From: an uncultured Gammaproteobacteria bacterium
Lineage (GTDB): Bacteria; Pseudomonadota; Gammaproteobacteria; CAWCPV01
Assembly (NCBI GenBank): GCA_963797555.1
Contig: CAWCPV010000004.1
Span: forward strand, 608,001-672,000
Direction: 5' to 3'
DNA length: 64,000 bases
Under the pieces are notes generated by a model. That model did no database searches, had not been told where the DNA came from, and saw only the letters and a program-made list of their open reading frames with translations. A program made the translations under genes and the position numbers. Positions 5,815 through 62,292 of the stretch are shown here, piece by piece; position 1 is the stretch's first letter, and every line of letters starts with the position of its first letter.

Positions 5815-5839
5815 TTTACGCGGTTTTACACAGTCTTAC
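5815..5839 (-). promoter_or_regulatory. Tandem CpxR boxes
   Basis: Minus strand reads GTAAG-N5-GTAAA-N5-GTAAA, matching the CpxR consensus GTAAA-N5-GTAAA, between cpxR and cpxP. Confidence 0.75.
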
Positions 5840-5936
5840 TCGGCCCCAACACACGCTTACGGCGTGGCGGATTAAATTGTTCCGCAGGATGTGGATATCC
5901 CGCATCCCGAGTGAACTTAGGCAAGAGGATTGAGCC

Positions 5937-6425
5937 ATGAAGAATGCAATGATGACGACCCTGACGACGACGTTGCTGGCCGGTAGCCTGGTGGCTGCCC
6001 CGGTCCTCGCACACCCGTCGGGCTGGCGGCATGGTGCGGCCTTCGGCCTGGAGGGGTGCGCCGAGCAGCGCGTCGAGCGCATGGCCGACAAGCTGAACCT
6101 GACGAAGGACCAGCTTGCCTCCATCCGCGCTGTTTTCGACCAGACGCGCGCTCAGCGGCGTGAACTCCACGACCGGATGATCGAGAACCGCAAACAGCTG
6201 CGGGCGCTGACGGAACAGGGCACTTTCGACGAGAACGAGGCGCGCAGGCTGGCCGATGCGCAAGGCAAGGTGACTGCAGACATGATCGTGCTGCGCACCC
6301 ATGTCCGGGCGGAAATCGACAAGGTTTTGACTCCCCAACAGCGCGAGCAGTTGAAGCAGTTGCATGGTAGCCACGGGGGGCGCGACCGCCAGCCGGCGGG
6401 GCAGTCGAGTCATTCAACGAGCTAA
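5937..6425 (+). CDS. cpxP: Spy/CpxP family periplasmic chaperone
   Basis: Signal peptide; LTxxQ motifs (LNLTKDQ, VLTPQQREQ); divergent from cpxRA. Confidence 0.85.
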   Translation: MKNAMMTTLTTTLLAGSLVAAPVLAHPSGWRHGAAFGLEGCAEQRVERMADKLNLTKDQLASIRAVFDQTRAQRRELHDRMIENRKQLRALTEQGTFDENEARRLADAQGKVTADMIVLRTHVRAEIDKVLTPQQREQLKQLHGSHGGRDRQPAGQSSHSTS

Positions 6426-32065: not shown

Positions 32066-32285
32066 GGGTCGCTGCTCCGCGAACAGCGATGCGTAGTAAT
32101 TCCAACGCTCTACGGTGCAGGGAATCCGGTCCTGGCGTTCCGAGCTGTCAAGGCTTCCGTGAGTGGGACGGGTCGGAAGGGCCGGCTTGGGTGCCGACCT
32201 TCACGATGCCCGGTGCGAGAACGCGTGGTGCAGACCCGACGGGCGGCGAAACCTAGCCCGCTACGCGGGCTGGCACAACAGGCTC

Positions 32286-32334
32286 AATATATCGAGTCCG
32301 ACCCCGAGAGCCGCATATCGTGTCTGACCCCATT
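32286..32334. repeat. Two orphan Y1-element terminal repeats
   Basis: ATCGAGTCCGACCCC (to 32305) and ATATCGTGTCTGACCCCATT (32315-32334) match the TIRs at 41053, 45520 and 46277-46303. Confidence 0.75.
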
Positions 32335-32335
32335 A

Positions 32336-32381
32336 GTCGCACCTGCACCTGGAAAGGCGACGAAGACTTGGCAGGAAGCAT
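32336..32381 (-). pseudogene. intI: Integron integrase N-terminal remnant (~15 codons)
   Basis: MLPAKSSSPFQVQVR resembles the IntI SP-x-L-D-QVR start; divergent from attI, under a LexA box, cut by a Y1 TIR. Confidence 0.6.
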
Positions 32382-32398
32382 GGCGGCATCCCTTGTGG

Positions 32399-32414
32399 CT
32401 GTATGGATACCCAG
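32399..32414. promoter_or_regulatory. LexA (SOS) box overlapping the intI -10 region
   Basis: CTGTATGGATACCCAG (CTG-N10-CAG); TATACT on the minus strand at 32413-32418 and TTGAAA at 32438-32443. Confidence 0.75.
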
Positions 32415-32443
32415 TATATAGAACTTTTGGAGAACTTTTTCAA

Positions 32444-32660
32444 GGATAGACGGACGATGTCCGCCTATCCCCCGAACGGATGCCTGCCGTCCCCGGCCCC
32501 GTCAGTCATCGAGTATGATGCAAGTGGCTGTTCGTCCGAGCGAACGACGCCGTCCGAGGTGACCCGCATGGTCCAGCGGCTCGGGGCACGGGCTTGCGGG
32601 ATAGGCGGACAATGTCCGTGTTTAAACACGGACAACGTCCGTCTACTCATATGTTAGCGC
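32444..32660 (+). other. attI region of the integron
   Basis: Crossover G|TTAGCGC at 32653 is the exact complement of the first attC R'' (GCGCTAAC); repeats GGATAGRCGGACRATGTCCG at 32444 and 32599; palindrome TGTCCGTGTTTAAACACGGACA. Confidence 0.7.
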
Positions 32661-33534
32661 CCAGGTGGAACCCAATTGCAAGAGGAGAAGATAAGATGCC
32701 TACTGAAACGGAAATTACAGCAGTTGCCGAGATGGAACTAAAAGCTCTGTTGACGGAGCTATCTGAAGGAGAGCTGATTGCGTTAGAGCTTGAAGTAGTT
32801 GAGGATGCAATCAAAGATCCGATATTCCAGGTTAGTGATTGTCAAGTTGAGGTTTCGAGCGCCACTGAAGAAGAGCTGCTCTCCCTAAGATCTCAACTTG
32901 AGCAAACAGGCCTTGCCCCTGACAAATCAGACGGCTTCATCAAGGGACTTGCCAAGCGTTTCGGAGGCAAGTATGCAGACGTTCTCGGCTTTAGACCAAT
33001 TCCTCCAGGGGAAAGCAATCCGGACCTATCGTCGATTGACATGCTCTTTGGTCGCGTGCACATGCCTACCGTAAAGGGGTTTACTACCAAACTGACTATT
33101 GAGCGAGAACAAGAAAAAGAGACCGATATAAGCATCAAGATTAACGGTTTCGGGGCAGGTGGCAGCAAATCATTTGCTTGCAAAATAAGTCAATCTCAAA
33201 CAATTAGCGCAATTCCGGTTAATCTAGTAATTCCTGTATCTGTTAAGATCGACAGGTTTGAGAATTCGGCAGGAGATTATTTCTATATATGCTATCCGGT
33301 GAACATTAGCCGAAATGTCGTCGCAAGGCGGACCAAGAATCAGTATGACTCGGAAGATGGATACAAAGAGCTCAGCAAGCTCCCTGGAATTCTGGATCGT
33401 TATGATACCACCGTACTATCCGAGCCGCAGCCGGTATCAGAGGTAACCGTTCAGACCCTCCCACCAGTTGATCGATGCGTTAAGAGCGCGTCCAGCGCAG
33501 CAGAGCCGCTCGGCTTGTCGTACACTCCCGGCTC

Positions 33535-34262
33535 ATGGATCAAGAGCCCTCTATTCCGCAGGCGCGCAGGCGATCACGGCGAGCGGCCGGAGCTTTACCG
33601 AAGAGGAGATCTCCGCCATCGTCCGAATGGTGTCGATGTGCGTGGGCCTGAGTCGTTTTGAGCTGGCGCAGACCATCTGTGAGCTGCTGGGGTGGAGACG
33701 GGACAACGGAGCCCTGAAGTCCCGCGAGTGTCGGGATCTACTGGAGCGGTTGGAAGCTCGGGGGGATCTGGGGCTTCCCGCCAAGCGCACGGGCAGGCCC
33801 AAGGGGCGGCGCACCTGCACTGCGCAGACCGATCGGGGCGAACGCCGCGGCGAGATTGCCGGTGCGCTGCAGGAGGTGGCCCCGGTGGAGCTTCAGTTAG
33901 TGCGCCAGGCCGAGGGACGGGCATTTGTGGCGCGAGCTTCTCGCGCGCTATCACTACTTGGGCTATGCCACACCCTTTGGGGCCCAGTTGGTCTATCTCA
34001 TCCGCTCCCAGCGCCGGGAGGGGGAGGTGTTGGGCGGGCTCACCTACACCAGCCCGGCCTGGCGCATGCAGGCCCGCGATGCGTGGATCGGCTGCGCTTT
34101 GCCGGGACCTGCTACCGGGCGGCCAACTGGTGCGAGGTGGGCGAGACCAGCGGACGCGGGCGCATGGACCGTGCGCACCAACGCCATGGCAGAGCGATAA
34201 AGCGGGTCTTCCTCTACGCTCTGCACCCGCAGGCCAGAGAGCGCCTGCGCGGTGAGCGCTGA
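33535..34262 (+). pseudogene. DUF4338 (DruA-like) passenger gene, frameshifted and internally deleted
   Basis: LSRFELAQTICELLGWRRDNG, RYHYLGY, AWRMQARDAWIG joined directly to RFAGTCYRAANWCEVGETSGRGR. Confidence 0.75.
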
Positions 34263-34264
34263 AC

Positions 34265-35834
34265 TCAAGCGGGCGCAGGAAGCGGCGGTGCCTCAAAGCC
34301 GCGGCGTCGGTGGGCGAGGACATCTCTGAGATAGCACAGCGGGGAGCTCAATCGCAGCCGAGAAGTCTCGATCACACTGGCGAGCAGCGCCAGCGCCCGG
34401 CTGCCTTGTTCGCTGCGGGTCCCCTGGCTGATGCGACGCAGAATCACCCAGTGACGCAGCGCCCGCTCCGCCACGTTGTTGGTCAGCGGCAGCTGAGGCT
34501 CATCCAACACCCGGAAGATCGCCCCCCAGTCGTTGAGCAGCTCCTTGCCCAGCGCCTGGGCCTTGTCATAAGGGCAGCAGCTCATGCGTTCACACAGGGC
34601 CGTGAGCTCGTTGAGTCTCGCCCGGGTGGGCTTGCCGCAGGGAGCCGCCCGGTCCCTCGCGGGCGTGATAGACGGCCTGCATCAGCGCATCGAGCAGGTC
34701 ATAGACCGCCTGGCCGTAGCCCTGGAGGGTGGGCGAGAGGCAATCCCTCAGGCCCCGGGCCTTGCGAATGAGATGCGCCCAGCAACGCAGGCGCTTGGCA
34801 TAGTCCCGATAGACCTGGTACCCATCGCTCATCAGATAGCCGCAGAAGAGATCCTCGATGAGGTTCTGAAACATCTCTTTGGCGCGAGAGCCGACCAAGA
34901 ACAGCGCCGTCGAGGCCGAGATGAACACCCATAACCACAAGGGCTCTCCCCATTGCTTGTGCGGTGTCTCATCGGCATGCATGAGGGCCGCTTCCAGCAA
35001 CTGGGTCACCAGCTCATCCTCGACCGGCTCGCAGGCACGGGCGGTCTCCATCACGCATTGGTGGAGGGTGCCGATGCCGAGCGCCAGCCCAAACACCTCG
35101 TGCAGGAACTCCCGGACCAGGCGGATGGACAGGCGCATCCGAAACCGCAGCCAGACGATGAAGGCGCACAATCCCGGCCCCACCAGGCGCCACTCGCCAA
35201 GCTCCACCCCTCGCCAGCATCCCAAGTGCTCGGGCGCGCGGTGCGGCGCCTGCCGGGTCTCATGACCACAGTCGCAACGGCTCTGGTAGTATACCTGCCG
35301 CGTGCAGGTCAGGCGCAGCCCCGGCGCCTGCTCATCGCCAAAGACCAAGTCCAGCCTATCAAAGGCGGTGTAGGGCTTCGCCTGCTCAGGATTGAGCGCC
35401 CCACCACACAGCGCACAACTTCCCGGCCGATGATGGTCCCAATCGGTGACTGTCAGCTTCTGGGCGCGCCCGAATCCCTGGGAGCCAGGCTGCCGGCCCG
35501 CTCGGCGCTGCGTCCCTGAGGTCTTGCCACTCGTGTCCTTTGCGCCCTTCTGGCCGCCAGCCCCGGGGAGGCCATCCTCCTCAGAACGGCTCTTGGCCTC
35601 CTCGTCCTCAGGACCGGCGTCGGCCTCTTCGTCCTCCCGCGCACGCAGCCAGGGGTCTTGACTGCTCGGCGGACGAGAGCTATTGGAGGGACTCTGATTG
35701 AGCCGCTCCCACGCTTCCTTGAGATCCTGCAGCAGGCGGATGCTCAGCGCTGCCAGCGCATCGGGATCCTTCTGCCTCAGCTCCAGAATGCGCTCCTCGC
35801 TGAGCTGACGAAGGTCGTGCTCCTTGAGCACCAT
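34265..35834 (-). pseudogene. IS66 transposase, frameshift near 34600
   Basis: NSSRPPSSQD, HADETP, MSDGYQVY, RLRCWAHLIRK, TNNVAERALR, GTRSEQG. Confidence 0.88.
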
Positions 35835-36175
35835 GATTGTGTGTGACAGTGAGGTCGAGGAACATCCTGCCAAGGGCACCCAACTGTCTCACGCTGGAAC
35901 CGTTTTGTCCAGCCCTCCGGGTCAAAATATTCCAGGGGGGTGAACGGTTACTATCAGAGTGGTTAAAAGAATCTACAAAAATAGATTTAAGCGCGGACAT
36001 TGGCTCGCTTCTTGGCATACCTGGAGTAGTTAGAGTTTCTGGTGTGGCAACGGTAAGAAATACGCTGCAAGTTTCATACTCGTTGCCTGTTGGTCATGAG
36101 TTTGCGTCGCATGTCCAGAATGAAAAGTATTTCAAACATATCTGGGCAACTAAATACTAGCTTGGAAACGCGCTA

Positions 36176-38105
36176 ATCGGGTAGCCGGGGGTGTTTAACC
36201 CCCAGCCCCCACACCACCACGGCATGCGGGTCCGCACCGGGCGGTTCACAAAAGCGGAGCACCCGACGACATCAAGCATAGCCATGGGCACGGAGCCACA
36301 AAGCGCGTACCGATATCAAGCCCTGGCGTTCCAGCCAGTCGTTGGTCATCCCGGTCTGTGTGGCCAGCGTCTTCGACAGGTGCCAGTAGCTTTGGGAGCT
36401 GAGCGCCGTCAGAATCGCATGGCGTTTACCGGTACCCAGGGCCAGGAGATTTCGGACCTTGGTGCGCACCCGACGCCACTGTTTCCAGTAGCACATGCGG
36501 ATGCGCCGCCGCAGCCATGGGTCAATCTCTGGGATGGGACGGTAGTAGTCCGAGATACCGAAGTAGTTCATCCAGCCCCTGACGTAGCGGGTGAGCCGGT
36601 CGAGGCGGTAGTCCATCGAGACTCCCCAGGAGCGCCCGGTCAGTTTCCGGACACGGTGCCTGAAGTCCTCGAAGGCTTGGTCGGACCAGCGCAGCTTGCT
36701 TCCACGGAACGTGAATCCCAGGAATTCCACCGCGTCGGTCTTGACCACCCGGCTCTTGGACTCGTTGACCACCAGCTTGAGGCGGGTGGTCAAGAACCGC
36801 GTGATGCTGGCCTTGACGCGTTCACCGGCGCGCTCGCTTCTGACCAAGATAAGCAGGTCATCGGCGTATCGCGCGAAGCGGTGTCCGCGCCTCTCCAGCT
36901 CCTTGTCGAGGTCGTCCAACAGGATGTTGGCCAGCAACGGCGAGAGCGGCCCGCCCTGAGGCGTGCCGAGTTCCGTTGCCTGGATGCACTCCCCGACCAG
37001 TACGCCCGAGCGCAGGTAGCGGCCTATCAGGGCGAGGAGGCAGGTGTCCTTAACCTTCCTCGCCACCCGGGCCATCAGGACATCGTGGTTCACTTGGTCG
37101 AAGAATTTCTCCAGGTCAAGGTCCACGGCGAACCGATAGCCCTCGCCGATATACCGCTGCACCTGGCGCAATGCTCCATGGGCGCAACGTCCCGGTCGGA
37201 AGCCGAAGCTCGACGCCGAGAAGTCCGGGTCGAACAGCGGCGTGAGGACTTGCCCGATAGCCTGCTGGATCACCCGGTCGAGCACCGTCGGGATACCCAG
37301 CAGCCGTTCGCCCCCATTCGGCTTCGGGATACTCACGCGTCTCACCGGCTGGGGTTGATAGGTGCCATCGAGCAGGGCTTGGCGGATAGCGGACCAGTGC
37401 AGCCGTGCAAACGCCGGGAAGCCCTCAAGGCGCATCCCGTCAACGCCGGGCGCCCCCTGGTTGGCCTTCACCCGCTTCCATGCGCGCTTGAGGTTTGCGC
37501 GGTCCACCACCCGCACCATGAGGTCGTCGTGCAAGGCTGGCTGCGCAAGCACACGCCGGTCAACAACTCCCCCGGACGGGTTCAACATCGAGACCGAGTG
37601 ACTCACGGCTCCTCCTTGTACTCTCGTGTTCGGCCCTTCACCGGAAGTCCCTCCTGGACGCCTCGGCTACTACGGCCTCTGCTGACTTCTGCCCGGTCAC
37701 GCCGCGCGTTGCCGCGGGGCGCGCTGCCGAAGGCGGGCGGTAGGGTCCGGTGGTCGCCCCAGGGCTTTCGCCCTGGACCTCAGTCCGGCTCCCATAGCCC
37801 GATCCGGCCGCAGGCCGGACAGACCTCCCCGAATAAGGACATGGACTATCGGTGCACAACCGCCGCATTTACCCTATCTCCTGTACCCGGTGGGCTTCGT
37901 CATCTTGTGCTGACTCGCCCGGAGACTAAGCCTTCTACGCGGTTTCTGTTCGTCGGCTCGCACCTTTGCGCTCGGGCTTCCTTCAGACCGCCCCTCGCGG
38001 GACCGCCCTTGCCGTCGGCTAGTAGTTGTATCTGTCCCGAGGGACATACCAGGTACTCCTACAGGGGACTCTCACCCCATCAGTCCATGCCCATGCCGGG
38101 CGTAC
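36176..38105 (-). mobile_element. Group IIC-attC intron (1930 nt)
   Basis: 5' end GTACGCCCGGCATGGGC after exon TTGT; domain V/VI then CCCGAT 3' end; inserted in the attC bottom strand at TTGT|TAG. Confidence 0.92.
36272..37606 (-). CDS. Group II intron reverse transcriptase/maturase (class C, no endonuclease domain)
   Basis: [54 protein letters not shown]. Confidence 0.95.
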
Positions 38106-38198
38106 ACAATGCGTTGCAGGTAACGTCTGTCCCGCTACGCGTGCCAGACGCACCTGAATACAACCGTTATGTTTTAAAAGGAAGATGAGGACTAGTTG

Positions 38199-39002
38199 AT
38201 GGCTGTGCAAAAAGCATTTCACGAAGGATTTGCACGCTTCTTTGAAGCGCCTTCTCGAGAAGCACTACGTGATCTTTTAAAACACAGTGTGGGCGAAACA
38301 GATCACATTGATTTTAAGGCAGAATTACCGGAAAAGGCTAAGTTAGCAAAGCATTTTCTAGCATTTGCCAATAGTGGAGGCGGAGCCCTTATTGTTGGCG
38401 TTACAGATGGTGAGTTGATGGAGCCAGTTGGTATTTCACAACTTACAGACAAGGCTGATATCCAAAAAATGGTATCGCCATACTTACCGGACTCTCTTCA
38501 ATATGAGGTTTTCGATTTTTCTTTCACTGAATCGGAATACCCAACTATCAAGGGAAAAACATTTCAGGCCATTCTTATTGAATCAAATGACAAAGACCTG
38601 CCGTACGTTTGCAAGCGAAACGGTGATTCGATACGAGAAAATGTTCTTTATGTAAGAAAAGGCACAAATTCAACAGAAGCAAACCATGATGATTTTCAAA
38701 AAGTTATAAATAAGCGCCTAGATACAGGATATTCTTCAACAAGAACACTTAGCCTAGAAGAGCATCTTGAACAGTTAAAATTATTGTATAAAGAAATACC
38801 CAGAACTATAAAGATACCAAAAGAAGGCGCATTCGATCAGCTACATGCGTTCGCGCGCATCGCAGGCGACATGCAGAATTTATTCGGAAAGCTTTACGAA
38901 ACTAAGCCAAATCCTGAATTCCCATCTGAAGACTATGATACGTTTGTACTTAGGCTGATTGATATGAAGAAGGCTCGTATCAAGCAGGAAATTGAGGTAT
39001 GA
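38199..39002 (+). CDS. Cassette 2: Schlafen/AlbA_2 domain protein
   Basis: ETDHIDFK, AFANSGGGALIVGVTD, YVRKG; AT-rich; flanked by attC sites. Confidence 0.85.
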   Translation: MAVQKAFHEGFARFFEAPSREALRDLLKHSVGETDHIDFKAELPEKAKLAKHFLAFANSGGGALIVGVTDGELMEPVGISQLTDKADIQKMVSPYLPDSLQYEVFDFSFTESEYPTIKGKTFQAILIESNDKDLPYVCKRNGDSIRENVLYVRKGTNSTEANHDDFQKVINKRLDTGYSSTRTLSLEEHLEQLKLLYKEIPRTIKIPKEGAFDQLHAFARIAGDMQNLFGKLYETKPNPEFPSEDYDTFVLRLIDMKKARIKQEIEV

Positions 39003-39003
39003 A

Positions 39004-39084
39004 ACATAACAAGGCCGTAAACTCGGACGCATTTTTTGTTTGCTGCGCTCACTACAAATGCGCCGGTTACGGCTGGCGTTGGGC
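39004..39084 (+). other. attC site 2
   Basis: R'' ACATAAC (complement of the preceding GTTATGT), imperfect palindrome, R' GTTGGGC. Confidence 0.9.
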
Positions 39085-39175
39085 GGCCGCTGGCACCGCC
39101 TCGCTTGATCGACCGCTGGTTGGGGACGACCCTACCCCTCGCCGCTCTGCAAGGAGAAACGGAAGGAGACCTCAC

Positions 39176-40030
39176 ATGAGAGCCAAGCTACAGCCACAAA
39201 TCGCCGTCTTCGCCAGGAACCACCTTCCCTATCTCGATTACGCCACTTCCGTTGCGAGCGATGATTCGGAACGGAAGGTCACATTTCGCAGTCGCAAGGC
39301 GTGGAGCGGCGCGAAACGGGCGCTTGAAGCCCTCGGGCGCCTCCCGGTGTTCTTTGCGGTCGTCGGTCAAGCCGACGTTCGCTATAAGGCGACTCTCCAA
39401 GAGATCCAGCTCAACCCTCGCACTGACGATGTCGATACGCAGCGACTACTGAGACTTGTTCCACCACAAACTGAAGGCGAGGGTCTCTGGGACGAGGCCG
39501 TTCACACACTCTACGTGGTCTCAGGCTGCTATCGTATCGACCAGCCACGGCCACTCTCAAGCCTAAATCTGGCCGACGACGGTTCACCCCTGTCTGAGAA
39601 CTTCAAATACTCATACGCCCTCGTGCGTGACGAAGCCATCGACATTCGGGACAGGCCAGCGCCCGACACGGCGCCACCTCCCGCACGGGTGGACGCTACC
39701 ATATCGCGGATCATTCGGGATACGGCTCTCGTCTGTAGGCTAAAGGCCTTCTACAATGATACGTGCCAATTGTGCGGCACACGGCTCACCCTTCGCAATG
39801 GCCGGGGCTATTCAGAGGGGCATCACCTGCGCCCCCTCGGCGCGCCACACGACGGACCGGACGTAGCCGACAACATTGTCATCGTCTGCCCGAACTGCCA
39901 TGCCCTTCTGGATCGCTGCTCCCTAACACTCGAGACCATTCCGAAATGCCATCCCGACCACCCGATCAGCCAGCTCTACATCAGCTACCACAACGCCCTG
40001 CCGGAACCGGGAGCGCAAGCGATCCGCTGA
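39176..40030 (+). CDS. Cassette 3: HNH endonuclease with an uncharacterised N-terminal domain
   Basis: CQLCG..SEGHHLRPL..GPDVADNIVIVCPNCHALLD; AAGGAG RBS. Confidence 0.88.
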   Translation: MRAKLQPQIAVFARNHLPYLDYATSVASDDSERKVTFRSRKAWSGAKRALEALGRLPVFFAVVGQADVRYKATLQEIQLNPRTDDVDTQRLLRLVPPQTEGEGLWDEAVHTLYVVSGCYRIDQPRPLSSLNLADDGSPLSENFKYSYALVRDEAIDIRDRPAPDTAPPPARVDATISRIIRDTALVCRLKAFYNDTCQLCGTRLTLRNGRGYSEGHHLRPLGAPHDGPDVADNIVIVCPNCHALLDRCSLTLETIPKCHPDHPISQLYISYHNALPEPGAQAIR

Positions 40031-40041
40031 AGCAAAGGGCC

Positions 40042-40099
40042 GCCCAACAACCGCTTGCACCGGACTCGCTTCGCTCGCCGGTGAAGCGAGGCGTTCGGC
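40042..40099 (+). other. attC site 3
   Basis: GCCCAAC-AACCGCTTGCACCGG...CCGGTGAAGCGAGGC-GTTCGGC. Confidence 0.92.
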
Positions 40100-40128
40100 G
40101 TCACATGCAACGATGAGGTTCGCTCCGA

Positions 40129-41016
40129 ATGTCCGTTAAGAATCGCATCCTCCAAGAACAGCGGGATTGGGCTACCGCGTTGGATCTGGAAGTCGATTCC
40201 AGAGGCTACCTCAGTAGCTATCAACTCAATCTCTTTCGGCCGCTGAATCAGAAATCGCTGGAGGCCTTTAACCGTGGTAGTGGTTCGGAGTTGAAGGACA
40301 CGCCGAGGAAACCGGCCAAGATGCGGGCGCTTCATTCATCTTCGGCATTGGCCGTGAACGTCTTTGATACATGGATGGATAGAAACGCCTCGCCGCTGCT
40401 GTCTGTCCTGAACTTGGAGCCGGGGGAAGTGGATGTTCATTTCGAAGAGCAATATCCCACCGGGCTTCCTGGCAATCCACCAAACCTCGATGTCGTGCTG
40501 AGGAGGTCCGGCGGTCACGTCATCGCCATAGAAAGCAAGTTTACAGAGTGGCTAACGCCGAAAGCCAAAAAGGCGCCCCCGCTCAAGGACAAATACTTTC
40601 CGAAAGGTGCCGGTGTCTGGGAGCAAGTCGGCCTTCCCAGGAAACAGCAATTTGCGGCGGCGCTCCACGCTGGAGAGGTCGTCTTCCGTCATCTGGATGC
40701 ACCGCAGCTCATTAAGCATAGTCTCGGCCTAGCCACACACTTGGGCCGCGACTTCTCGCTTCTGTATGTGTTCTATGATGCCGATGGTGTCGAAGGGGAA
40801 GTGCATCGGTCTGAGATCTCTATATTCGCAGCTCAGGTCGGTTCCGAGTTCGGATTTCAAGCCATTTCCTACCAGCAGGTGTTCCCCGAATTGGCGGCGC
40901 GACATGACGCACCCGAGGAATATCTCAGCTATCTGAAGGCGAGGTATTTCTCAGGAGACGCCGAACAACGCGTTGCAGGTGACGTTTGGCCCACTGCGCG
41001 CGCCAGCCGCGCCTGA
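40129..41016 (+). CDS. Cassette 4: PD-(D/E)xK putative restriction endonuclease (PGN_0703-like)
   Basis: HSSSALAVNVF, HFEEQYP, PPNLDVV..AIESKFTE, DAPQLIKH; stop codon lies inside attC4. Confidence 0.75.
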   Translation: MSVKNRILQEQRDWATALDLEVDSRGYLSSYQLNLFRPLNQKSLEAFNRGSGSELKDTPRKPAKMRALHSSSALAVNVFDTWMDRNASPLLSVLNLEPGEVDVHFEEQYPTGLPGNPPNLDVVLRRSGGHVIAIESKFTEWLTPKAKKAPPLKDKYFPKGAGVWEQVGLPRKQQFAAALHAGEVVFRHLDAPQLIKHSLGLATHLGRDFSLLYVFYDADGVEGEVHRSEISIFAAQVGSEFGFQAISYQQVFPELAARHDAPEEYLSYLKARYFSGDAEQRVAGDVWPTARASRA

Positions 41017-41031
41017 ACGCAGGCGTTCGGC
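40960..41031 (+). other. attC site 4
   Basis: GCCGAAC-AACGCGTTGCAGG...CCTGAACGCAGGC-GTTCGGC. Confidence 0.9.
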
Positions 41032-41052
41032 GTCTTAGTGTTAGAGAAGCGC

Positions 41053-41370
41053 AATGGGGTCAGACATGATAATCTGTGCTATGCTTCGTGCAGTCACTTC
41101 ACGACCTGAACCGCCATGGCCCGCCTTCCCCGCTACGTCATCCCTGGGCAGCCGCAGCATATCATCCAGCGCGGCAACAACCGCCAGGTGATCTTTGCCG
41201 CGGATGCGGACTATCAGTTTTTTCGCGATGCCCTGGTGGAAGCGGCAAGTGAGCATGGTCTGTCGATCCACGCGTATGTCTGGATGACCAACCACATCCA
41301 TCTTCGGGCCACACCTGAAGGCGACCACAGCATCAGCAAAGTGCTCCAGTCAGTGGGTCGGCGTTATGTG
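41053..41370 (+). mobile_element. Y1/RAYT-like element type A, 3'-truncated (gene from 41116)
   Basis: Left TIR AATGGGGTCAGAC; MARLPR..HIIQRGNNRQ..MTNHIH; close paralogue of 45581-46288. Confidence 0.88.
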
Positions 41371-41396
41371 GGAATGTGGAATGGGGTGTGGAATGG

Positions 41397-41950
41397 GTAG
41401 AGTAGAGGGCAGGTGTCCGAGACCGTAGGCTGGGCCTATCTGTTTCCGCCCCTTTCGTCTGGCGGTGCCTCAAGAGCCCATCCGTAGCCGCAGTAGCCAG
41501 CCCCCTCTCATCAAACCGTGCATACGGTTTTCCCGTACACGTTCCGATGCTCTTCACGCCAGGGCATGCGCCGTGCGCCAGGGTGCCGTCGTCGCCAGCT
41601 TGAAGAGTCCATAACGGGCAGGTGCTCTCCGGACGGGAAAGCGCCGGTACGCCTGCGCCCGGCTGAGGAGCTTGTGGCGCCGACGCAGATGAGTACGTAC
41701 CCGCTCTTCCACGTGCAGCTTCACCTTGGACAGTGCCTGAGTGCAGTTGCGGTGGTGAAAGTAGTGGCTCCAGCCCCGCAGGCTCCGGTTCAGCTCCCCG
41801 ATGATCTGGGGCATCGGCACCGGGGTCCGCCGTCGAGGAGTCAACTGCTTGGCACGGTCTTTGATGCGCTGCACCGAGCGCTTCGACGGTTCCACATGCG
41901 GGTAGCGTTTGCCGCTGTGGCGACTGCGCCGCAGGCGGAAGCTGAAGCCG
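41397..41950 (-). mobile_element. Group II intron 3' fragment (second family; maturase C-terminus plus DV/DVI)
   Basis: ELNRSLRGWSHYF; domain V GTGTACGGGAAAACCGTATGCACGGTTT; ends CTCTAC before 3' exon CCATT. Confidence 0.85.
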
Positions 41951-41956
41951 CCAGCC

Positions 41957-42783
41957 AAAGGGGCCAGGGTCGCATTATTTTGCTATGATAAGTCCAATGC
42001 CCCGCCGCCCCCGCATCCATCTTGATCGCGTACCGCTGCACATCGTGCAACGCGGGCACAACCGCCAACCGTGCTTCTTTGGCGAAGAAGATTATCAGGC
42101 ATACCTCCACTGGTTGGGCGAAGCGTTGAAGAAAGAGCAATGCGCGCTTCACGCCTACGCGTTGATGACCAACCACGTCCACCTGCTTCTGACGCCGGAA
42201 CATGCCCAAGCGGTTCCCCGGCTAATCATTGCCTTGGGGCGGCGCTACGTGCAGTATATCAACACCACCTACCGCCGGACCGGCACCTTGTGGGATAGCC
42301 TGGGATAGCCGTTACAAATCCTCGCTGATCCAAGCCGAAACCTACTTGCTTGCCTGCCAGCGATACATCGAGCTCAACCCCGTACGGGCGGCCATGGTGG
42401 ATGATCCTGCGCATTACCGCTGGACGAGCTACCGTCACAACGCCCTGGGGCAGGTCAACCCTTGCCTTACCCCCCATCCTCTGTATCTGTCGCTGGGCAG
42501 GGATGCGAAGGAAAGGCAAGCTGCCTACCGGAGCCTGTTCCGGGCGCAACTGGACCAAGAAGCGGTCAACGACCTACGGCTGGCGCTCAATCAGAATCAG
42601 CCTTTGGGCAATGCACGGTTTTATGCCAACATTGAGGCAGCGACCGGCCAACGGCGGGAGCCGAAGCCGCGAGGCAGGCCGTGTGCCCGGCGAGACGACT
42701 CCGTCGCGGCATGACCCAGGTCAGGGAGAACTGGCGGTATGAATGCAGTTTATGCAGCAGAAATATGCGAGCCTGGCCCCTTT
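41957..42783 (+). mobile_element. Y1/RAYT-like element type B copy 1 (827 bp; gene from 41997, frameshifted)
   Basis: TIRs AAAGGGGCCAGGGTCGCAT / ATGCGAGCCTGGCCCCTTT; HIVQRGHNR, MTNHVHLL, YIELNPVRA; 10-bp duplication at 42291-42310. Confidence 0.9.
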
Positions 42784-42807
42784 AATCGCTTTAATCGCGG
42801 TCAGAAC

Positions 42808-43281
42808 ATGGCGCACGAGACAAACGATCCTTTCGGCGTCCGCTCTGCCTTCGCGCAGATTCAGAGACGAACGCATTCAGGGCTTGCAATTGCAGTCGCA
42901 GCAATCTTGGATAGTCAGCTCGAACTGTGCCTGAAGCAGGCCATGCTCCCGATGCCGAAGAAGCTATACGCCCAACTCTTCGACCCAATGCGCGCCTTGG
43001 GTAGCTTCGCTAGCAAGATCACAATGGCATACGCCCTGGGCATCGTCACTAGAGACATCTACAACCGCTTAGAGAACGTCCGAAAGATCCGCAATGCTTT
43101 TGCTCACTCGACCGTCGTTCTGAACTTTGAGAGTGCTCCAGTGGCGCCTCTGCTGGATCGACTGAAGAAGTCCATGGAACTGAAGACCAACTCACCGCAG
43201 GGACAATTTCTCGAGTGTGTAAAGCCCATTGACGAGGCGCTCAACGCCTACTTGAAATCGAAGGGCGCGCAGGCGTTGTAA
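42808..43281 (+). CDS. Cassette-like gene: MltR/HEPN-like protein
   Basis: LGSFASKITMAYALG, VRKIRNAFAHS (RxxxxH). Confidence 0.7.
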   Translation: MAHETNDPFGVRSAFAQIQRRTHSGLAIAVAAILDSQLELCLKQAMLPMPKKLYAQLFDPMRALGSFASKITMAYALGIVTRDIYNRLENVRKIRNAFAHSTVVLNFESAPVAPLLDRLKKSMELKTNSPQGQFLECVKPIDEALNAYLKSKGAQAL

Positions 43282-43297
43282 CCGGAGCTTCCGTGAG

Positions 43298-43353
43298 ACC
43301 TAACCAATAAGGATTGAGGCGACCCGAGGGGTCGTTTCAATCCAGTGTTCAAG
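43298..43353 (+). other. Degenerate attC-like site 5
   Basis: ACCTAAC, stem GGATTGAGGCGACC/GGTCGTTTCAATCC, then GTTCAAG; spacing atypical. Confidence 0.5.
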
Positions 43354-43418
43354 AAGCCCAGTGGTGGGCGTGGCTCTTTAACAGCAAGGGGATTGCTTCA
43401 GCGGCGTGTGTGAGGGCT

Positions 43419-44245
43419 AAAGGGGCCAGGGTCGCATTATTTTGCTATGATAAGTCCAATGCCCCGCCGCCCCCGCATCCATCTTGATCGCGTACCGCTG
43501 CACATCGTGCAACGCGGGCACAACCGCCAACCGTGCTTCTTTGGCGAAGAAGATTATCAGGCATACCTCCACTGGTTGGGCGAAGCGTTGAAGAAAGAGC
43601 AATGCGCGCTTCACGCCTACGCGTTGATGACCAACCACGTCCACCTGCTTCTGACGCCGGAACATGCCCAAGCGGTTCCCCGGCTAATCATTGCCTTGGG
43701 GCGGCGCTACGTGCAGTATATCAACACCACCTACCGCCGGACCGGCACCTTGTGGGATAGCCTGGGATAGCCGTTACAAATCCTCGCTGATCCAAGCCGA
43801 AACCTACTTGCTTGCCTGCCAGCGATACATCGAGCTCAACCCCGTACGGGCGGCCATGGTGGATGATCCTGCGCATTACCGCTGGACGAGCTACCGTCAC
43901 AACGCCCTGGGGCAGGTCAACCCTTGCCTTACCCCCCATCCTCTGTATCTGTCGCTGGGCAGGGATGCGAAGGAAAGGCAAGCTGCCTACCGGAGCCTGT
44001 TCCGGGCGCAACTGGACCAAGAAGCGGTCAACGACCTACGGCTGGCGCTCAATCAGAATCAGCCTTTGGGCAATGCACGGTTTTATGCCAACATTGAGGC
44101 AGCGACCGGCCAACGGCGGGAGCCGAAGCCGCGAGGCAGGCCACGTGCCAGGCGAGACGACTCCGCCGCGCATGACCCAGGTCAGGGAGAGCTGGCGGTA
44201 TGAATCCAGCTTTATGCAGCAGAAATATGCGAGCCTGGCCCCTTT
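43419..44245 (+). mobile_element. Y1/RAYT-like element type B copy 2 (827 bp; gene 43459-44203, frameshifted)
   Basis: Same TIRs and the same TGGGATAGCC duplication (43753-43772) as copy 1. Confidence 0.9.
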
Positions 44246-44276
44246 AATCGCTGTTCACATCACCTTGGAGATCGTC

Positions 44277-44654
44277 ATGAAATATCTGCTTGTTCTCGCA
44301 ACTCTTGTGGCAAGCGGTACGGCATCAGCTGCGAGGCTGCCGTGCTCAATCCACGCCAAGACGGGCGCTTCCGCAGCCACGCTCCAGAGCCTTAGCAAAA
44401 TATCGATCGAACAAGCACGGGCAACTGCTCTCTCCGCCGTCGGTGCACAATCGACGGCGGTGGCCGAGGGGGAGCTTGAAGCCGAGCACGGTTGTCTTGT
44501 CTACTCGTTCGACATCCGTCTCTCTCCTCAGGCTACTGGGGTAGAGGAGGTCATGGTCGATGCTGGTAACGGCAAGGTGTTGTCGCATAAGCATGAAACA
44601 CCGCAGCAAGAAGCCACTGAGAAAGCTAAGGATGCAGCTGCTAGTCACAAGTAG
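44277..44654 (+). CDS. Cassette-like gene: exported PepSY domain protein
   Basis: Signal peptide; KISIEQARATAL, ELEAEHGCLVYSFDI, EVMVDAGNGKVL. Confidence 0.85.
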   Translation: MKYLLVLATLVASGTASAARLPCSIHAKTGASAATLQSLSKISIEQARATALSAVGAQSTAVAEGELEAEHGCLVYSFDIRLSPQATGVEEVMVDAGNGKVLSHKHETPQQEATEKAKDAAASHK

Positions 44655-44682
44655 TCACTGCAATTAGGTAAGCGACGTTGCC

Positions 44683-44730
44683 GCCCAACCCTGCGCTCCA
44701 GCCGACGGGCACGCCTTCGGCGTGGGCGCG
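44683..44730 (+). other. Left half of attC site 6
   Basis: GCCCAAC-CCTGCGCTCCAGCCGAC plus hairpin CACGCCTTCGGCGTG; cut at CAATGG. Confidence 0.7.
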
Positions 44731-44736
44731 CAATGG

Positions 44737-45501
44737 GTAGAGTAGAGGGCAGGTGTCCCGAGACCGTAGGCTGGGCCTATCTGTTGCCGCCCCTTTCGTC
44801 TGGCGGTGCCTCAATAGCCCAACCATAGCCGCAGGAGCCAGCCCCCCTCATCAAACCGTGCATACGGTTTTCCCGTACACGGCTTTCCGATGCTCTTCAC
44901 GCCAGGGCATGCGCCGTGCGCCAGGGTGCCGTTGTCGGCAGCTTGAAGAGTCCATAACGTCCGTAGAGCACCTGCCCGGGAAAGCGCCGATACGCCTGCA
45001 CCCGGCTGATCAGCTTGTGGCGCCGACGCAGATGAGTATGCACCCGCTCTTCCACGTGCAGCTTCACCTTGGACAGTGCCTGAGTGCAGTTGCGGTGGTG
45101 AAAGTAGTGGCTCTAGCCCCGCAGGCTCCGGTTCAGCTCCCCGATGATCTGGGGCATCGGCACCGGGGTCCGCCGTCGATGAGTCAACTGCTTGGCACGG
45201 TCTTTGATGCGCTGCACCGAGCGCTTCGACGGCTCGACATGCGGGTAGCGTTTGCCACTGTGGCGACTGCGCCGCAGGCGGAAGCTGGAGCCGAGAAAGT
45301 CGAATGACTGTTCTCGGGCATCGACCACCCGCGTCTTGGCCTCGTTGAGGCTGAGACCCAGCCGCTCCAATATGCTGCGCAGCACCCGCATCGGTGGCTC
45401 CACCCCCCGTGCACACATGATGACCAGATCATCGGCATAACGCACGAGTCGGGCTCCATAGGCGCCCGCCAGGTCATGGCGCTCCCATATCCGATCCAGC
45501 G
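44737..45501 (-). mobile_element. Group II intron 3' fragment (same family as 41397-41950)
   Basis: LDRIWERH..VRYADDLVI..FDFLG..; premature TAG at 45113-45115; DV/DVI; 3' exon CCATT. Confidence 0.88.
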
Positions 45502-45519
45502 CGTCCGCAATACGTCCGC

Positions 45520-46303
45520 AATAGGGTCAGACACGATATTGTGCTATCCTTCGTGCAGTCACTGCACGACCTGAACCGCCATGGCCCGCCTTCCCCGCTA
45601 TGTCATCCCCGGGCAGCCGCAGCATATCATCCAGCGCGGCAACAACCGCCAAGTGATCTTTGCCGCCGATGCGGACTATCAGTTTTTTCGCGATGCCCTG
45701 GTGGAAGCGGCAAGCAAGCACGGTCTGGCGATCCACGCGTATGTCTGGATGACCAACCATATCCATCTGCTGGCCACACCGGAAGGCGACCACAGCATCA
45801 GCAAAGTGCTCCAGTCCGTGGGTCGGCGTTATGTGCAGTACTTCAATTTCACATACCGGCGCAGCGGCACCCTGTGGGAAGGCCGCTACCGGGCGACGGT
45901 AGTCGATAGCGAGCGGTATCTGCTGACGCTGATGCGCTACATCGAGCTGAACCCCGTGCGGGCGGCGCTGGTGGGGCACCCCAGGGATTATCCCTGGTCC
46001 AGTTACCGGTGCAATGCGCTCGGTGAGTCGGGATCGAACGCAGACTGGCTGAGGCCGCATCAGGAATATCTGCGCTTGGGCCGCACTGCGGCGGAACGGC
46101 AAGGTGCCTACCGGCAATTGTTCCGGGCGGCTGTCTCCGGCAACGACCTGAGGGAAATCCGGGAGTGCACGCACAAGGGCTGGGCGCTCGGTGGCGACCG
46201 GTTCAGGGACCAGGTCGAGGCGCTGGCGCAGCGGCGTGCAGCGTCCAAGGGTGTGGGCAGGCCGAGAAAGGATGATAATCGTGTCTGACCCGTGTCTGAC
46301 CCC
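45520..46303 (+). mobile_element. Y1/RAYT-like element type A, complete
   Basis: TIRs GGGTCAGACACGAT / ATCGTGTCTGACCC; short tandem duplications at both ends. Confidence 0.88.
45581..46288 (+). CDS. HUH Y1 tyrosine transposase (RAYT/TnpA-REP-like), intact
   Basis: HIIQRGNNR, MTNHIHLL (HUH), GTLWEGRY, RYIELNPVRA (catalytic Tyr), YPWSSY; stop lies inside the right TIR. Confidence 0.92.
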   Translation: MARLPRYVIPGQPQHIIQRGNNRQVIFAADADYQFFRDALVEAASKHGLAIHAYVWMTNHIHLLATPEGDHSISKVLQSVGRRYVQYFNFTYRRSGTLWEGRYRATVVDSERYLLTLMRYIELNPVRAALVGHPRDYPWSSYRCNALGESGSNADWLRPHQEYLRLGRTAAERQGAYRQLFRAAVSGNDLREIRECTHKGWALGGDRFRDQVEALAQRRAASKGVGRPRKDDNRV

Positions 46304-46416
46304 GCTTACCCTTCCGCGCCCGACTTGCACCGGTATGCGCGGACGCCGCAAAATCAGCGCCCGGCGTTCGCGCGCTGCCTGCCCGATTTCTCCTGCCTGC
46401 CATAAGGAGACCGAAG

Positions 46417-48144
46417 ATGCACCTCCGCACCGGACTGTTCTTGGTCCTCGCCCTGGTCGCTCACCCGGTTAGTCTCGCCCAGGCCGGGCAGAGGACGCCC
46501 CCCGGTCCTTCCGACGTACTCGTGGTATCGGGAACCGTCACCAACTCCCAGGGCAAGGCGGTCAAGGGGGCAGAGCTAACTTTCTTCGTCGCAGGCCAGC
46601 GGGTGAAGCTGGCGGAGGAGGTGACGACCTCGGCCCATGGAACCTACGAGGCGCAGCTCGAGCTGCCGGCCGGCACGCTGCCCGGTGCCCGCGTGGAGGT
46701 AATGGCGGGGAGGCCATCCTACCAGTCGACCGGGCGGCTTTCTCTGCAGCACGTGTTGCCGGAGCAGGTGGACGGCGGCGGCAACCGCGTCTACCTCGCC
46801 CACTTCAGCACCACCCTGGAGCGCGCCTTGTCGCCGGGATTCTGGATAGCCGCGCTGGTGCTGCTCGGCGTCTATATTTTCATCGCCTTCGAACTCATGC
46901 ACCGCACGCTGGCTGCGCTCGTGGGGGCCGCGCTGATGCTGTTCGTGAGCTACACACTAGGCACCTTCGACCCGAGCTACCGCATCCTGGCCTTCGAGGA
47001 CGCCATGCACGCCATCGACGGGAACGTCATATTTCTGCTGATGGCGATGATGATCATCGTCGGGATCACCAAGAAGACCGGCGTGTTCCAATGGATGGCC
47101 TACAAGTCGTTCCAGGTGGCGCGCGGGAATATTTTCGTGCTGGCAGCGCTGCTCATGTTCGTGACGGCCGTGGTGTCCGCCTTCCTCGACAACGTGACGA
47201 CCATGCTTCTGCTCATCCCGGTGACCATCGAGGTTTCTCTCGCGCTCAAGCTGAGCCCGATGGTCCTGCTGATACCCGAAGTCTTCGCATCCAACGTCGG
47301 CGGCACGGCGACTCTGATCGGCGATCCGCCCAACATCATGATCGGGTCCTATGCGGGGCTCACCTTCATGGACTTCGCGCGGAATCTGACGCTGGTTTGC
47401 CTGATCGGGCTCGCGGCCTCCACGGTCTATTACGTGTTGTGGTTTCGAAAGGGCTACCTCGCGGCCAAGGTGGGCGACGTGCCCGCCATGGTCGCGCGTC
47501 TGCGCGAGGAGTACCAAATCACAGACCGCCCCCTGCTCATCAAGTGCGGGATCGTTCTGGCCATCACCATTTTTCTGTTCGTCGTTCACGGCGCGCTGGA
47601 CATGGAGCCGAGCATCGCGGCCATGACCGGAGCGGCGCTGCTGCTCATCATCAGCGACGTGCACATCGTCGAAATGGTGGAGAAGGAGGTCGAGTGGCCG
47701 ACCCTGATCTTCTTTATGATGCTGTTCATCGTCGTGGCTGGCGCCGAGCAGACGGGGCTCATCCAGATCATCGCCGAGTGGGTGCGCGAGGCATCACGGG
47801 GGTCCCTGGTGCTCGCCATCGTCATGATCCTCTGGGTCTCGGCGCTGTTCTCGGCGATTATCGACAACATCCCATTCACCGCCACCATGCTTCCCGTCGT
47901 GGCATACCTCACGACGAGCATCCCGGGTGCCGAGCATGGGATTCTCTGGTGGGCGCTCTCTCTCGGCGCCTGTCTCGGCGGCAACGGCACCCTGATCGGA
48001 GCGAGCGCTAATGTCGTGACGGTAGGTATGGCCGAAAAGGCGGGTTATCCGGTCTCGTTCATGGAGTACCTGCGGATGGCATTCCTCCCCATGATCCTCA
48101 CGGTGGTGATCGCCATGATCTGGCTGCTCCTGGTCGAGGTGTGA
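46417..48144 (+). CDS. ArsB/NhaD (SLC13-like) permease with N-terminal periplasmic beta-sandwich domain
   Basis: AFLDNVTT, SNVGGTATLIGDPPN, IIDNIPF, CLGGNGTLIGASAN; signal peptide followed by VSGTVTNSQGKAVKGA. Confidence 0.88.
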   Translation: MHLRTGLFLVLALVAHPVSLAQAGQRTPPGPSDVLVVSGTVTNSQGKAVKGAELTFFVAGQRVKLAEEVTTSAHGTYEAQLELPAGTLPGARVEVMAGRPSYQSTGRLSLQHVLPEQVDGGGNRVYLAHFSTTLERALSPGFWIAALVLLGVYIFIAFELMHRTLAALVGAALMLFVSYTLGTFDPSYRILAFEDAMHAIDGNVIFLLMAMMIIVGITKKTGVFQWMAYKSFQVARGNIFVLAALLMFVTAVVSAFLDNVTTMLLLIPVTIEVSLALKLSPMVLLIPEVFASNVGGTATLIGDPPNIMIGSYAGLTFMDFARNLTLVCLIGLAASTVYYVLWFRKGYLAAKVGDVPAMVARLREEYQITDRPLLIKCGIVLAITIFLFVVHGALDMEPSIAAMTGAALLLIISDVHIVEMVEKEVEWPTLIFFMMLFIVVAGAEQTGLIQIIAEWVREASRGSLVLAIVMILWVSALFSAIIDNIPFTATMLPVVAYLTTSIPGAEHGILWWALSLGACLGGNGTLIGASANVVTVGMAEKAGYPVSFMEYLRMAFLPMILTVVIAMIWLLLVEV

Positions 48145-61658: not shown

Positions 61659-61864
61659 ATGAGCGTTCAACTAGACCACGCGATAGTTCCATCCCACGAC
61701 AGGAAAGCTGCGGCAGAATTGCTCGCCACCCTCCTTGGCGTCCCTTGGGCAGAGTCCGGAGTGGGTCCCTTCTGCCCTGTCTATGTGAACGAAGGATTGA
61801 CCCTCGACTTCGACCAAGCCGAGGGCCTCTTTCCCGTACAACACTATTGCTTTCGAGTGAGTGA
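61659..61864 (+). pseudogene. VOC/glyoxalase family gene, truncated
   Basis: MSVQLDHAIVPSHD..LTLDF..QHYCFRVSE, then abuts the integrase fragment. Confidence 0.75.
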
Positions 61865-62292
61865 GGTGACTTCTCGAATGGGCCGCGCACCGATCCAGGG
61901 GAACACGTCGCGCTCTAGGCGTCGGATGATCTTGCTGGAATGACTCGCAGCCCAGGTCGGCGCGAACTTGACGAACCACTCCCGCGCCACGGCTGCAAAG
62001 GTGTTCTCCACCCTGTCGGCCTGCAACGCCTTCTCAGCCTTGCGTGCCGCAGCGGGATCGACTCCCGATGCGAGCAGCTTGCGCGCCTCATCCCGTCTAT
62101 CCCTGGCATCCTTCAGGGACACATCCGGGTACACGCCGATGGCAAGCGTCTTGCGCGTGCCTATGAACCGGTAGTCCAGCCGCCAGTATTTGTTCACGGA
62201 CTCACCAGCAGGTACAGCCCCTTCTCGTCGGTGAGCTTATAGGGCCTGTCCTTGGGCTTGGCGTTGCGAGCTGTGGTATCGGTGAGCGACAT
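61865..62292 (-). pseudogene. P4-like (IntA) integrase N-terminal fragment
   Basis: MSLTDT..AKPKDRPYKLTDEKGLYLLV, KYWRLDYRF..LAIGVYPDVSLKDAR, NTFAAVAREW; no catalytic domain. Confidence 0.85.

Follow-up and report, generated by a model that had tools for sequence, protein, structure and literature searches.

The question raised by this locus is whether four small transposase elements crowded into a cassette array landed there by ordinary insertion or act on the array itself. The window, that is, the whole stretch of 64,000 nucleotides from contig CAWCPV010000004.1 of an uncultured gammaproteobacterium to which all positions below refer, carries these elements within a 14-kb island, and an earlier note on this DNA had described them as Y1 HUH transposase elements that colonised and reshaped an integron, appear to have destroyed its integrase and may replace IntI in shuffling or expressing cassettes. 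With a probability of about 0.8, we consider the four elements to be TIRtrons encoding TIRYTs, a class that has already been described and is barely studied. A TIRtron is an insertion sequence (IS)-like unit of ~780–830 bp with one TIRYT gene and terminal inverted repeats of 20–30 bp that open with (A)A(A/T)GGGG.CAG, and the TIRYT itself is a Y1 HUH transposase of RAYT-like type that carries a helical C-terminal extension of ~90 residues. The TIRtrons would have landed in non-coding stretches of a decaying, integrase-less array that already held group IIC introns and IS66.

The elements, which fall into two types (A and B), and the type-A repeats that accompany them are as follows:

32291–32334, minus strand: orphan type-A ends, two tandem partial left-end-like repeats
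41053–41370, plus strand: A1, truncated type-A TIRtron, with a left inverted repeat and a Y1_Tnp (PF01797) match at 41116–41400
41371–41396, no strand: filler of 26 nt, made of repeated (G)GAATGG units
41957–42783, plus strand: B1, type-B TIRtron, with inverted repeats at 41957–41984 and 42756–42783 and a Y1_Tnp match at 41985–42308
43419–44245, plus strand: B2, type-B TIRtron, with a Y1_Tnp match at 43447–43770
45520–46303, plus strand: A2, intact type-A TIRtron, with its left repeat from 45520

A tblastn search with the intact A2 protein found Y1 coding sequence in the 64-kb window only between 41116 and 46285. The type-A end core GGGTCAGACA gave five exact matches, all in the island (32321, 46282 and 46293 on the minus strand; 41057 and 45524 on the plus strand), against an expectation of 0.21 from shuffles, none of 100 shuffles reaching five; the type-B end AAAGGGGCCAGG gave four matches against 0.43 expected, a number reached by 0 of 100 shuffles. 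The inverted repeats are 28 nt long with 86% complementarity in type B and 18 nt long with 89% in type A, and four of the five window matches to the -10-like TGCTATNNT sit 22–24 nt inside the four left ends. The earlier note was right on these points: two types of Y1 element, four in all, and the orphan ends lie within the island and, by Y1_Tnp, tblastn and end-motif matches, nowhere else in the window; they are bounded by inverted repeats, longer than it had claimed, and not by IS200/IS605 hairpins or by GTAG-type repetitive extragenic palindromes (REPs); and each left end contains the -10-like box. The elements have indeed colonised a cassette array.

Only the first ~85 Y1 codons are kept in A1, whose gene is cut near 41370; its -10-like box lies at 41077–41085, 298 of 323 aligned columns are identical to A2, and it starts 21 nt past the R′ box of the preceding attC. 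The filler that follows resembles the first bases of the type-A inverted repeat. A2 has its -10-like box at 45542–45550 and a Y1 open reading frame (ORF) of 235 codons at 45581–46288, covered by Y1_Tnp over that length, with the stop codon inside the right inverted repeat and the repeat end doubled (46281–46291 and 46292–46303). Judged from the reading frames, A2 is predicted to be the only copy able to make the enzyme. The orphan ends have their outer end toward the right and no transposase gene attached; over 29 nt the repeat there is complementary to the left end of A2 at 83%, and it contains an exact core at 32321–32330.

The type-B elements point to recent movement, and near-identical copies whose boundaries coincide exactly with the inverted repeats are new here. 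B1 and B2 are identical from 41954 and 43416, respectively, for ~730 nt and differ at eight positions in 827 nt, all in the last ~100 nt (a scripted count of 13 includes five gap-placement columns at the left edge). To the left, the sequences diverge within 3 nt of the repeat edge into flanks with no relation to each other; the right flanks share 7 nt, and the neighbouring genes differ. Both copies are pseudogenes, with a common 10-bp tandem duplication that shifts the frame (42291–42310 in B1; 43753–43772 in B2), and because both carry this same frameshift they must have moved in trans or have been copied after inactivation. The frameshifting duplication is of the size class of the junction duplications described below and lies within the gene.

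The A2 protein matched Pfam Y1_Tnp at 4e-13 and NCBIfam REP_Tyr_transpos with 77.8 bits (cut-off 80), and its best sequence match in the PDB was 4ER8, the Escherichia coli TnpA_REP (E = 8e-7, residues 5–145). The predicted model (predicted local distance difference test score, pLDDT, 95) gave 4ER8 as its top fold match (E = 2e-10, template modelling score 0.77), followed by the IS608 and ISDra2 transposases. The HUH motif (H60, H62) and Y120xxxN124P125 occupy nearly invariant columns among 63 sequences. Residues 146–235 are predicted to form a helical domain (pLDDT 90.6), for which Pfam gave nothing at E ≤ 10 and Foldseek against the PDB a best E of 2.6.

This protein belongs to a large family, in which 8000 of 8000 scored candidates passed E ≤ 0.001 and 873 clusters at 50% identity passed E ≤ 1e-30. 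Thousands of relatives, 78–93% identical, occur in Betaproteobacteria and Gammaproteobacteria, many on contigs of ~1–2.5 kb that hold about one element. The A and B proteins share ~45% identity and each lineage has a repeat of its own, and 6158 of 7055 candidates passed E ≤ 1e-20 for the B lineage. A third lineage, 42% identical, has three copies in a Pseudomonas aeruginosa record (L082, NZ_CP116719, 14100–23000), each with a repeat of 33–36 bp that opens with the same AAAGGGG.CAG; these copies sit amid small toxin-domain and immunity-like genes on the downstream side of a DUF637 (CdiA-like) gene, a further array of small variable genes that the family has colonised. Relatives on plasmids were found in 27 records, each below 60% identity, and the one backbone checked, from Iodobacter, contained no integron.

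To place the ends in a wider setting we used 80 related loci fetched with the A2 protein (L001–L080). Repeat ends were found on both sides of the gene in 52, on the left only in 17 and on neither side in four, and contig ends or N runs prevented a call in seven; the stop codon lies within the right repeat in many loci, as in A2. Seventy related left ends gave the consensus AATGGGGTCAGACACGAT and the right ends its complement, which makes AATGG the outer part of the inverted repeat and not a flank. A -10-like TGnTAnnnT was present in 38 of the 70 left ends versus 1% of random 34-mers, and the corresponding box of the right-end repeat faces inward. In A, B and the P. aeruginosa copies alike, the repeat sequence changes together with the protein lineage. 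Additional repeat cores at distances above 260 nt from the gene were seen in 30 of the 80 loci, arrays of up to six right-end copies exist, and the presence of four elements in one island could be because the family piles up beside its own ends. No target-site duplication was detected (≤ 2 of ~52 at any offset), and the flanks of the 47 fully flanked relatives shared only AT-richness (54% versus 42%). Folding of the A2 left end into a hairpin (z = -3.4) is not conserved in relatives, the A2 right end gave z = -0.8, and the type-B left end had no significant fold.

Tandem duplications spanning the junction of element and flank were abundant in these loci, occurring at 17/70 left and 13/54 right ends versus 32 of 2539 random positions in the same loci, an enrichment of ~18-fold (24% of ends versus 1.3% of random positions). 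In the exact duplications (12 left, eight right) the outer edge lies 6–12 nt outside the GGGG core and the inner edge mostly 2 nt (8/20) or 7 nt (6/20) into it. Those in the window are an 11-nt unit twice at the A2 left end (45498–45519), an 11-nt unit twice at the A2 right end and a 9-nt unit twice at the B1 right end (42781–42798); the doubled orphan at 32291–32334 and the GGAATGG-rich filler at 41371–41396 look like older duplications of the same kind. Duplications across the element ends throughout the family are new here and, as a sequence pattern, hint at the position of the enzyme's cut. By analogy with other Y1 HUH transposases, the enzyme would nick and rejoin single strands at or near the repeat ends and leave no target duplication. 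The C-terminal domain may recognise the repeats, the two repeats may pair when the element is single-stranded, and the conserved -10-like box of the left end probably drives the Y1 gene. Repeated nicking, short extension and re-ligation at the ends could generate the tandem junction duplications.

The class to which we assign the elements was named by Di Nocera, De Gregorio and Rocco (2013, BMC Genomics 14:522, PMC3733652), who applied TIRYT and TIRtron to RAYT-like genes flanked by inverted repeats that share GGGGWSAS, may overlap the gene ends and occur as dimers or clusters; the GGGG-type repeats that the earlier note mentioned beside RAYT relatives correspond to this class. The window elements resemble it in having a Y1 protein with HUH and a catalytic tyrosine (H60/H62, Y120xxxNP), terminal inverted repeats that replace REP hairpins around the gene, a type-A repeat (GGGGTCAG) that fits GGGGWSAS, a repeat overlapping the gene end, and repeats in dimers or clusters. 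In its accessible portion, that paper describes neither junction duplications nor near-identical copies within one genome whose boundaries match the repeats exactly. According to the portions available of Quentin et al. (2018, BMC Genomics 19:475, PMC6006769), TIRYTs form TnpA_REP subclass 2.1, with a C-terminal extension and no REP, found in ~15% of strains; RAYT Group 1 is mapped onto this subclass, and class 2 genes show low copy number and mostly vertical behaviour. Group 1 is among the two RAYT groups that most resemble IS, and it includes 6.3% duplicates as well as some plasmid-borne members (Bertels et al., 2017, Genome Biology and Evolution 9:2110, PMC5581495). Likeness of A2 to subclass 2.1 extends to the Y---NP motif, the extension beyond the core (the 4ER8 match ends at residue 145 of 235), the lack of REP-like hairpins nearby and the wide distribution in Proteobacteria. 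In the literature searched, the term TIRYT is confined to Di Nocera and the TnpA_REP/RAYT classification work, and no paper matched the repeat strings of our elements.

Comparison with neighbouring systems sharpens this assignment. The IS200/IS605 family (IS608, ISDra2) shares the Y1 HUH fold, the single small transposase gene and the lack of a target-site duplication, whereas the window elements have true terminal inverted repeats and no conserved subterminal hairpins, and the A2 protein has an extra C-terminal domain and is closer to TnpA_REP. IS200/IS605 elements insert 3′ of a fixed short target adjoining the left end; in the occupied sites compared here, the bases outside the TIRtron repeats showed only AT-richness. 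With REPIN-RAYT systems the elements share the protein clade, inverted cognate repeats around the gene and repeats that also occur alone in clusters. They differ in lacking a GTAG-tagged REP hairpin, in having several near-identical, decaying gene copies (four in the window, three of them defective) instead of one domesticated gene, and in the scarcity of solo repeats in the window (32291–32334 only).

Several points weigh against the assignment or against the mechanism proposed with it. The type-B repeat reads GGGGCCAG, one base off GGGGWSAS at W, and the right end went undetected within 250 nt in 17 of the 80 relatives. The C-terminal helix-turn-helix reported for part of subclass 2.1 (Bac_DnaA_C, HTH_23 or HTH_28-like), with its DnaA-like nature, was not recovered for A2, which may belong to subgroup 2.1.1, where the extension is only called conserved. 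No TIRYT transposition has been demonstrated, and Quentin et al. (PMC6006769) state that formal evidence of autonomous mobility is lacking. The variable outer edge of the junction duplications (6–12 nt) weakens the idea of nicking, extension and re-ligation. Plain opportunistic insertion does not explain why AATGG adjoins both intron fragments described below or why GCGCAATGG stands before both A1 and intron fragment 2, and integron contexts (three loci plus the window) exceed random placement, so that some preference for arrays may exist.

The ground on which the elements sit has a lower G+C content than its surroundings and comprises the following features apart from the elements and introns:

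30311–32065: HypX-like gene, left boundary of the island
32447–32645: palindromic block resembling a MITE (a miniature transposable element with inverted repeats), folding versus shuffles z = -5.3
34265–34585 and 34590–35879, minus strand: frameshifted IS66-family transposase
38106–38170: attC in which the intact group II intron sits
38196–41031: three consecutive attC-bearing cassettes (SLFN/AlbA_2, HNH and REase-ARP)
39004–39084, plus strand: attC of the SLFN/AlbA_2 cassette, with R″/R′ boxes and a hairpin
40042–40099, plus strand: attC of the HNH cassette, fold of -29 kcal/mol, ends paired
40960–41031, plus strand: attC of the REase-ARP cassette, fold of -46 kcal/mol
44678–44735, plus strand: attC-like remnant after the PepSY cassette, adjoining intron fragment 2
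46417–48144: CitMHS transporter gene, right boundary of the island

From the left, the island consists of the two tandem orphan type-A ends, the palindromic block, a truncated ORF, a DUF4338/DruA-like fragment, the frameshifted IS66 transposase, a cassette tail, the intact group II intron and the three attC-bearing cassettes, followed by A1, intron fragment 1, B1, the cassette at 42808–43281, B2, the PepSY cassette, the attC-like remnant, intron fragment 2 and A2. The palindromic block at the left array edge contains a ~17-nt motif three times and resembles a small MITE or a regulatory palindrome. The DUF4338/DruA-like ORF fragment adjoins the IS66-family transposase, and the pair (33468–35879) splits the first cassette ORF near 33460. 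The three cassettes (38196–41016) have a nucleic-acid-targeting or defence look: the SLFN/AlbA_2 cassette matched PADLOC PDC-S50 (3.9e-7), the HNH cassette mREase_IV (9e-7) and the REase-ARP cassette its Pfam family (2.6e-16).

Canonical attC sites number only four in the window, all within 38.1–41.0 kb and with R″/R′ boxes and paired ends, and were recognised by eye and by fold, not by IntegronFinder; that at 40960–41031 is 79% identical to that at 38106–38168. The remnant at 44678–44735 preserves only an R″/L″-like 5′ half, with no R′ box and no significant fold (z = 0.08), and the stretch after the cassette at 42808–43281 (43282–43418) contains a hairpin instead of an attC, namely a perfect 15-bp hairpin with a 3-nt loop at 43311–43343, the place expected for an attC. 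Pfam and NCBIfam revealed no intI remnant in the region or in the ORFs of the whole window, six-frame pieces of 31950–32720 gave nothing against NCBIfam at E ≤ 1, and neither IntI1 of R751 nor the L041 IntI matched the window in tblastn at E up to 10–50. With no IntI signal in the window, the array does not qualify as a complete integron (intI with attI beside an attC array), and the four attC sites at 38106–41031 make it a CALIN (cluster of attC sites lacking an integron integrase; at least two attC in the same orientation, no intI). The island is best called a decayed, integrase-less cassette array that holds group II introns and IS66. A fragment of a P4-type phage integrase (Arm-DNA-bind_3, Phage_int_M; 61844–62197, minus strand) is unrelated to the island.

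One intact group II intron and two fragments lie in this array:

36181–38105, minus strand: intact group IIC-attC-type intron, with the reverse transcriptase (RT)/maturase at 36272–37606
41397–41956, minus strand: intron fragment 1, a 3′ part with the maturase domain and a GIIM match
44737–45519, minus strand: intron fragment 2, domains V–VI and the RT C-terminal part from YADD onward

The intact intron, which matched Rfam group-II D1D4, RVT_1 and GIIM, is inserted in R″ of the attC at 38106–38170, opposite in orientation to the cassettes, and encodes an RT without an endonuclease domain; by site, orientation and RT, the features on which its class is based, it is a group IIC-attC intron. Its junction on the bottom strand, TTGT|intron, agrees with the TTGT/T consensus given in the accessible text of PMC7923331. 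Fragment 1 ends ≤ 6 nt from the B1 left end, and fragment 2, in which Rfam Intron_gpII matched at 44737–44887, stops at the A2 left end. The fragments are 93.7% identical over 559 nt, and 13-nt flanks are also paralogous. The pentamer AATGG lies ahead of each fragment's 3′ end, and A1 and fragment 2 both follow the 9-mer GCGCAATGG. In AATGG|intron, the pentamer is either the left half of an attC R″ box, as suggested because the site of the intact intron reads alike and IIC-attC introns insert at TTGT/ in R″, or a sign that an intron once entered a type-A repeat. Searches of the 80 loci with blastn and tblastn found no relatives of the window introns apart from one RT, in L014, which lies ~1 kb from the element on its downstream side without adjoining an element end. 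Ordinary insertion, and not action on attC, would have broken the intron copies and cassette boundaries.

These results bear on what the earlier note had made of the island. Its 14-kb integron proved to be an integrase-less array with four clear attC sites, and of the intI said to be destroyed no remnant was detectable in the window. Its view that element ends mark the points at which other genes are cut holds for both intron fragments and is unsupported for intI, of which no remnant was found; the AATGG ‘flank’ is part of the repeat. It had also placed the type-B right ends just upstream of cassette ATGs, in the position of an attC R′ site: these ends do lie 24 nt upstream of the ATG at 42808 and 31 nt upstream of that at 44277, but the proposed replacement of R′ and the order element–gene–attC are not shown, no full attC being seen there. 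A role of the elements in cassette expression or as substitutes for IntI found no support either, a simple scan revealing no sigma-70-like promoter in 40900–46450, including outward from the B right ends, and the -10-like box of the right end facing inward. That the link between TIRYT elements and integrons was undescribed is borne out, since none is in print in the literature searched and PMC3733652 does not mention integrons (0 occurrences). One published speculation is that certain ISs could mobilise arrays devoid of an integrase.

We assessed the association with arrays by IntI tblastn and by reading three loci. An attC covariance model built from three window sites recovered its own seeds, L018 and one L041 site and missed known attC even unfiltered, and hairpin-plus-R-box scans were insensitive or too loose (415 candidates in 1.1 Mb); both were set aside. 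IntI was present within 10 kb in two of the 80 loci. In L041 a frameshifted intI, with a classical array, is 2.3 kb away from the element, which lies ~100 nt after an ORF and 190 nt before an attC. L008 contains an N-terminal stump of IntI (5707–6112, residues 33–94 only), with an orphan right-end-like repeat ~200 nt away beside a presumed attI, and its element sits right after an ORF stop; it is the sole locus that resembles the picture of a destroyed integrase. L021 has two attC sites just downstream of its element, which lies ~230 nt before an attC. In all three the element is inside a cassette and outside attC. The two intI genes in ~1.04 Mb of flank are several-fold above the expectation from one intI per genome, and further above it if only a minority of genomes carry integrons; some enrichment of the elements in integron contexts is likely. 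Most simply, cassette arrays would act as permissive sinks, in this island for IS66 and the introns as well, and an element caught in a cassette can travel with it.

Would the elements instead recognise folded attC sites or cassette boundaries, reshape arrays and stand in for a lost integrase? HUH enzymes and attC recombination both act on folded single-stranded DNA, four elements and the orphan ends share a 14-kb island while none occurs in the other 50 kb, A1 starts close to an R′ box and both B copies end close to cassette ATGs, and IntI or attC accompanies the element in L041, L008 and L021. Against this, 78 of the 80 loci have no IntI within 10 kb, the elements of L041, L021 and L008 lie between ORF and attC, the 47 complete relatives share nothing but AT-rich flanks, clustering of the family at its own ends is seen outside integrons as well, its members also occur in a toxin/immunity array and on an ordinary plasmid backbone, and neither a promoter-like site in 40900–46450 nor an intI remnant in the window was found, which together make this reading improbable. 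The IS1111-attC group inserts at a defined position inside attC. Group IIC-attC introns (PMC7923331, as far as its text is available) do likewise. Both share the habitat, one intact intron of the latter type being present in the array, whereas the TIRtrons of this island and of L008, L021 and L041 are all outside attC. A broader version is unlikely, in which TIRYTs prefer hairpin-rich, often single-stranded arrays of small variable genes (the integrons here and in L008, L021 and L041, and the P. aeruginosa toxin/immunity array) and rearrange them or carry neighbouring cassettes along by end-directed nicking and rejoining, of which the tandem junction duplications would be the visible trace. 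In that version the island, bounded by type-A ends in the same orientation (32317–32334 and 46281–46303), could be a unit moved or assembled by the enzyme.

The assignment to mobile TIRtrons must further be set against two explanations of how the copies and repeats arose. Segmental duplication or homologous recombination of domesticated, immobile RAYT-like Y1 genes would suit the paralogous intron fragments with their 13-nt flanks and the low-copy, mostly vertical class 2 genes (PMC6006769, in its available portion); we regard it as quite improbable, given that identity between B1 and B2 starts within 3 nt of the left repeat and ends 7 nt past the right one, that truncation, frameshifts and orphan copies are what IS decay typically leaves, that thousands of close relatives lie on contigs of element size, and that RAYT Group 1 is among the most IS-like, with its duplicates and plasmid-borne members (PMC5581495, in the part accessible). 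That an unrelated DDE transposase encoded elsewhere moves a MITE-like unit to which the repeats would belong, with the Y1 gene as a passenger, is highly improbable: true terminal inverted repeats are a DDE hallmark and solo or tandem repeats occur without a gene, but no target-site duplication was detected, the Y1 stop codon is overlapped by the repeat, whose sequence follows the Y1 lineage, and no DDE gene was common to the loci, though no systematic search was made.

The element class is already known, and what is new in detail is its integron context together with signs of recent mobility; a functional link to integron recombination is unsupported. The array looks like one more permissive landing ground, and the integron angle carries less weight than the earlier note had hoped. 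TIRYTs are among the largest Y1 HUH groups, yet their movement has never been shown, and the window is a natural experiment in this respect, with one intact copy, one truncated copy and two near-identical broken copies ending at inverted repeats. The repeat-exact copies and the duplication scar at the ends are useful starting points for the biochemistry of the family.

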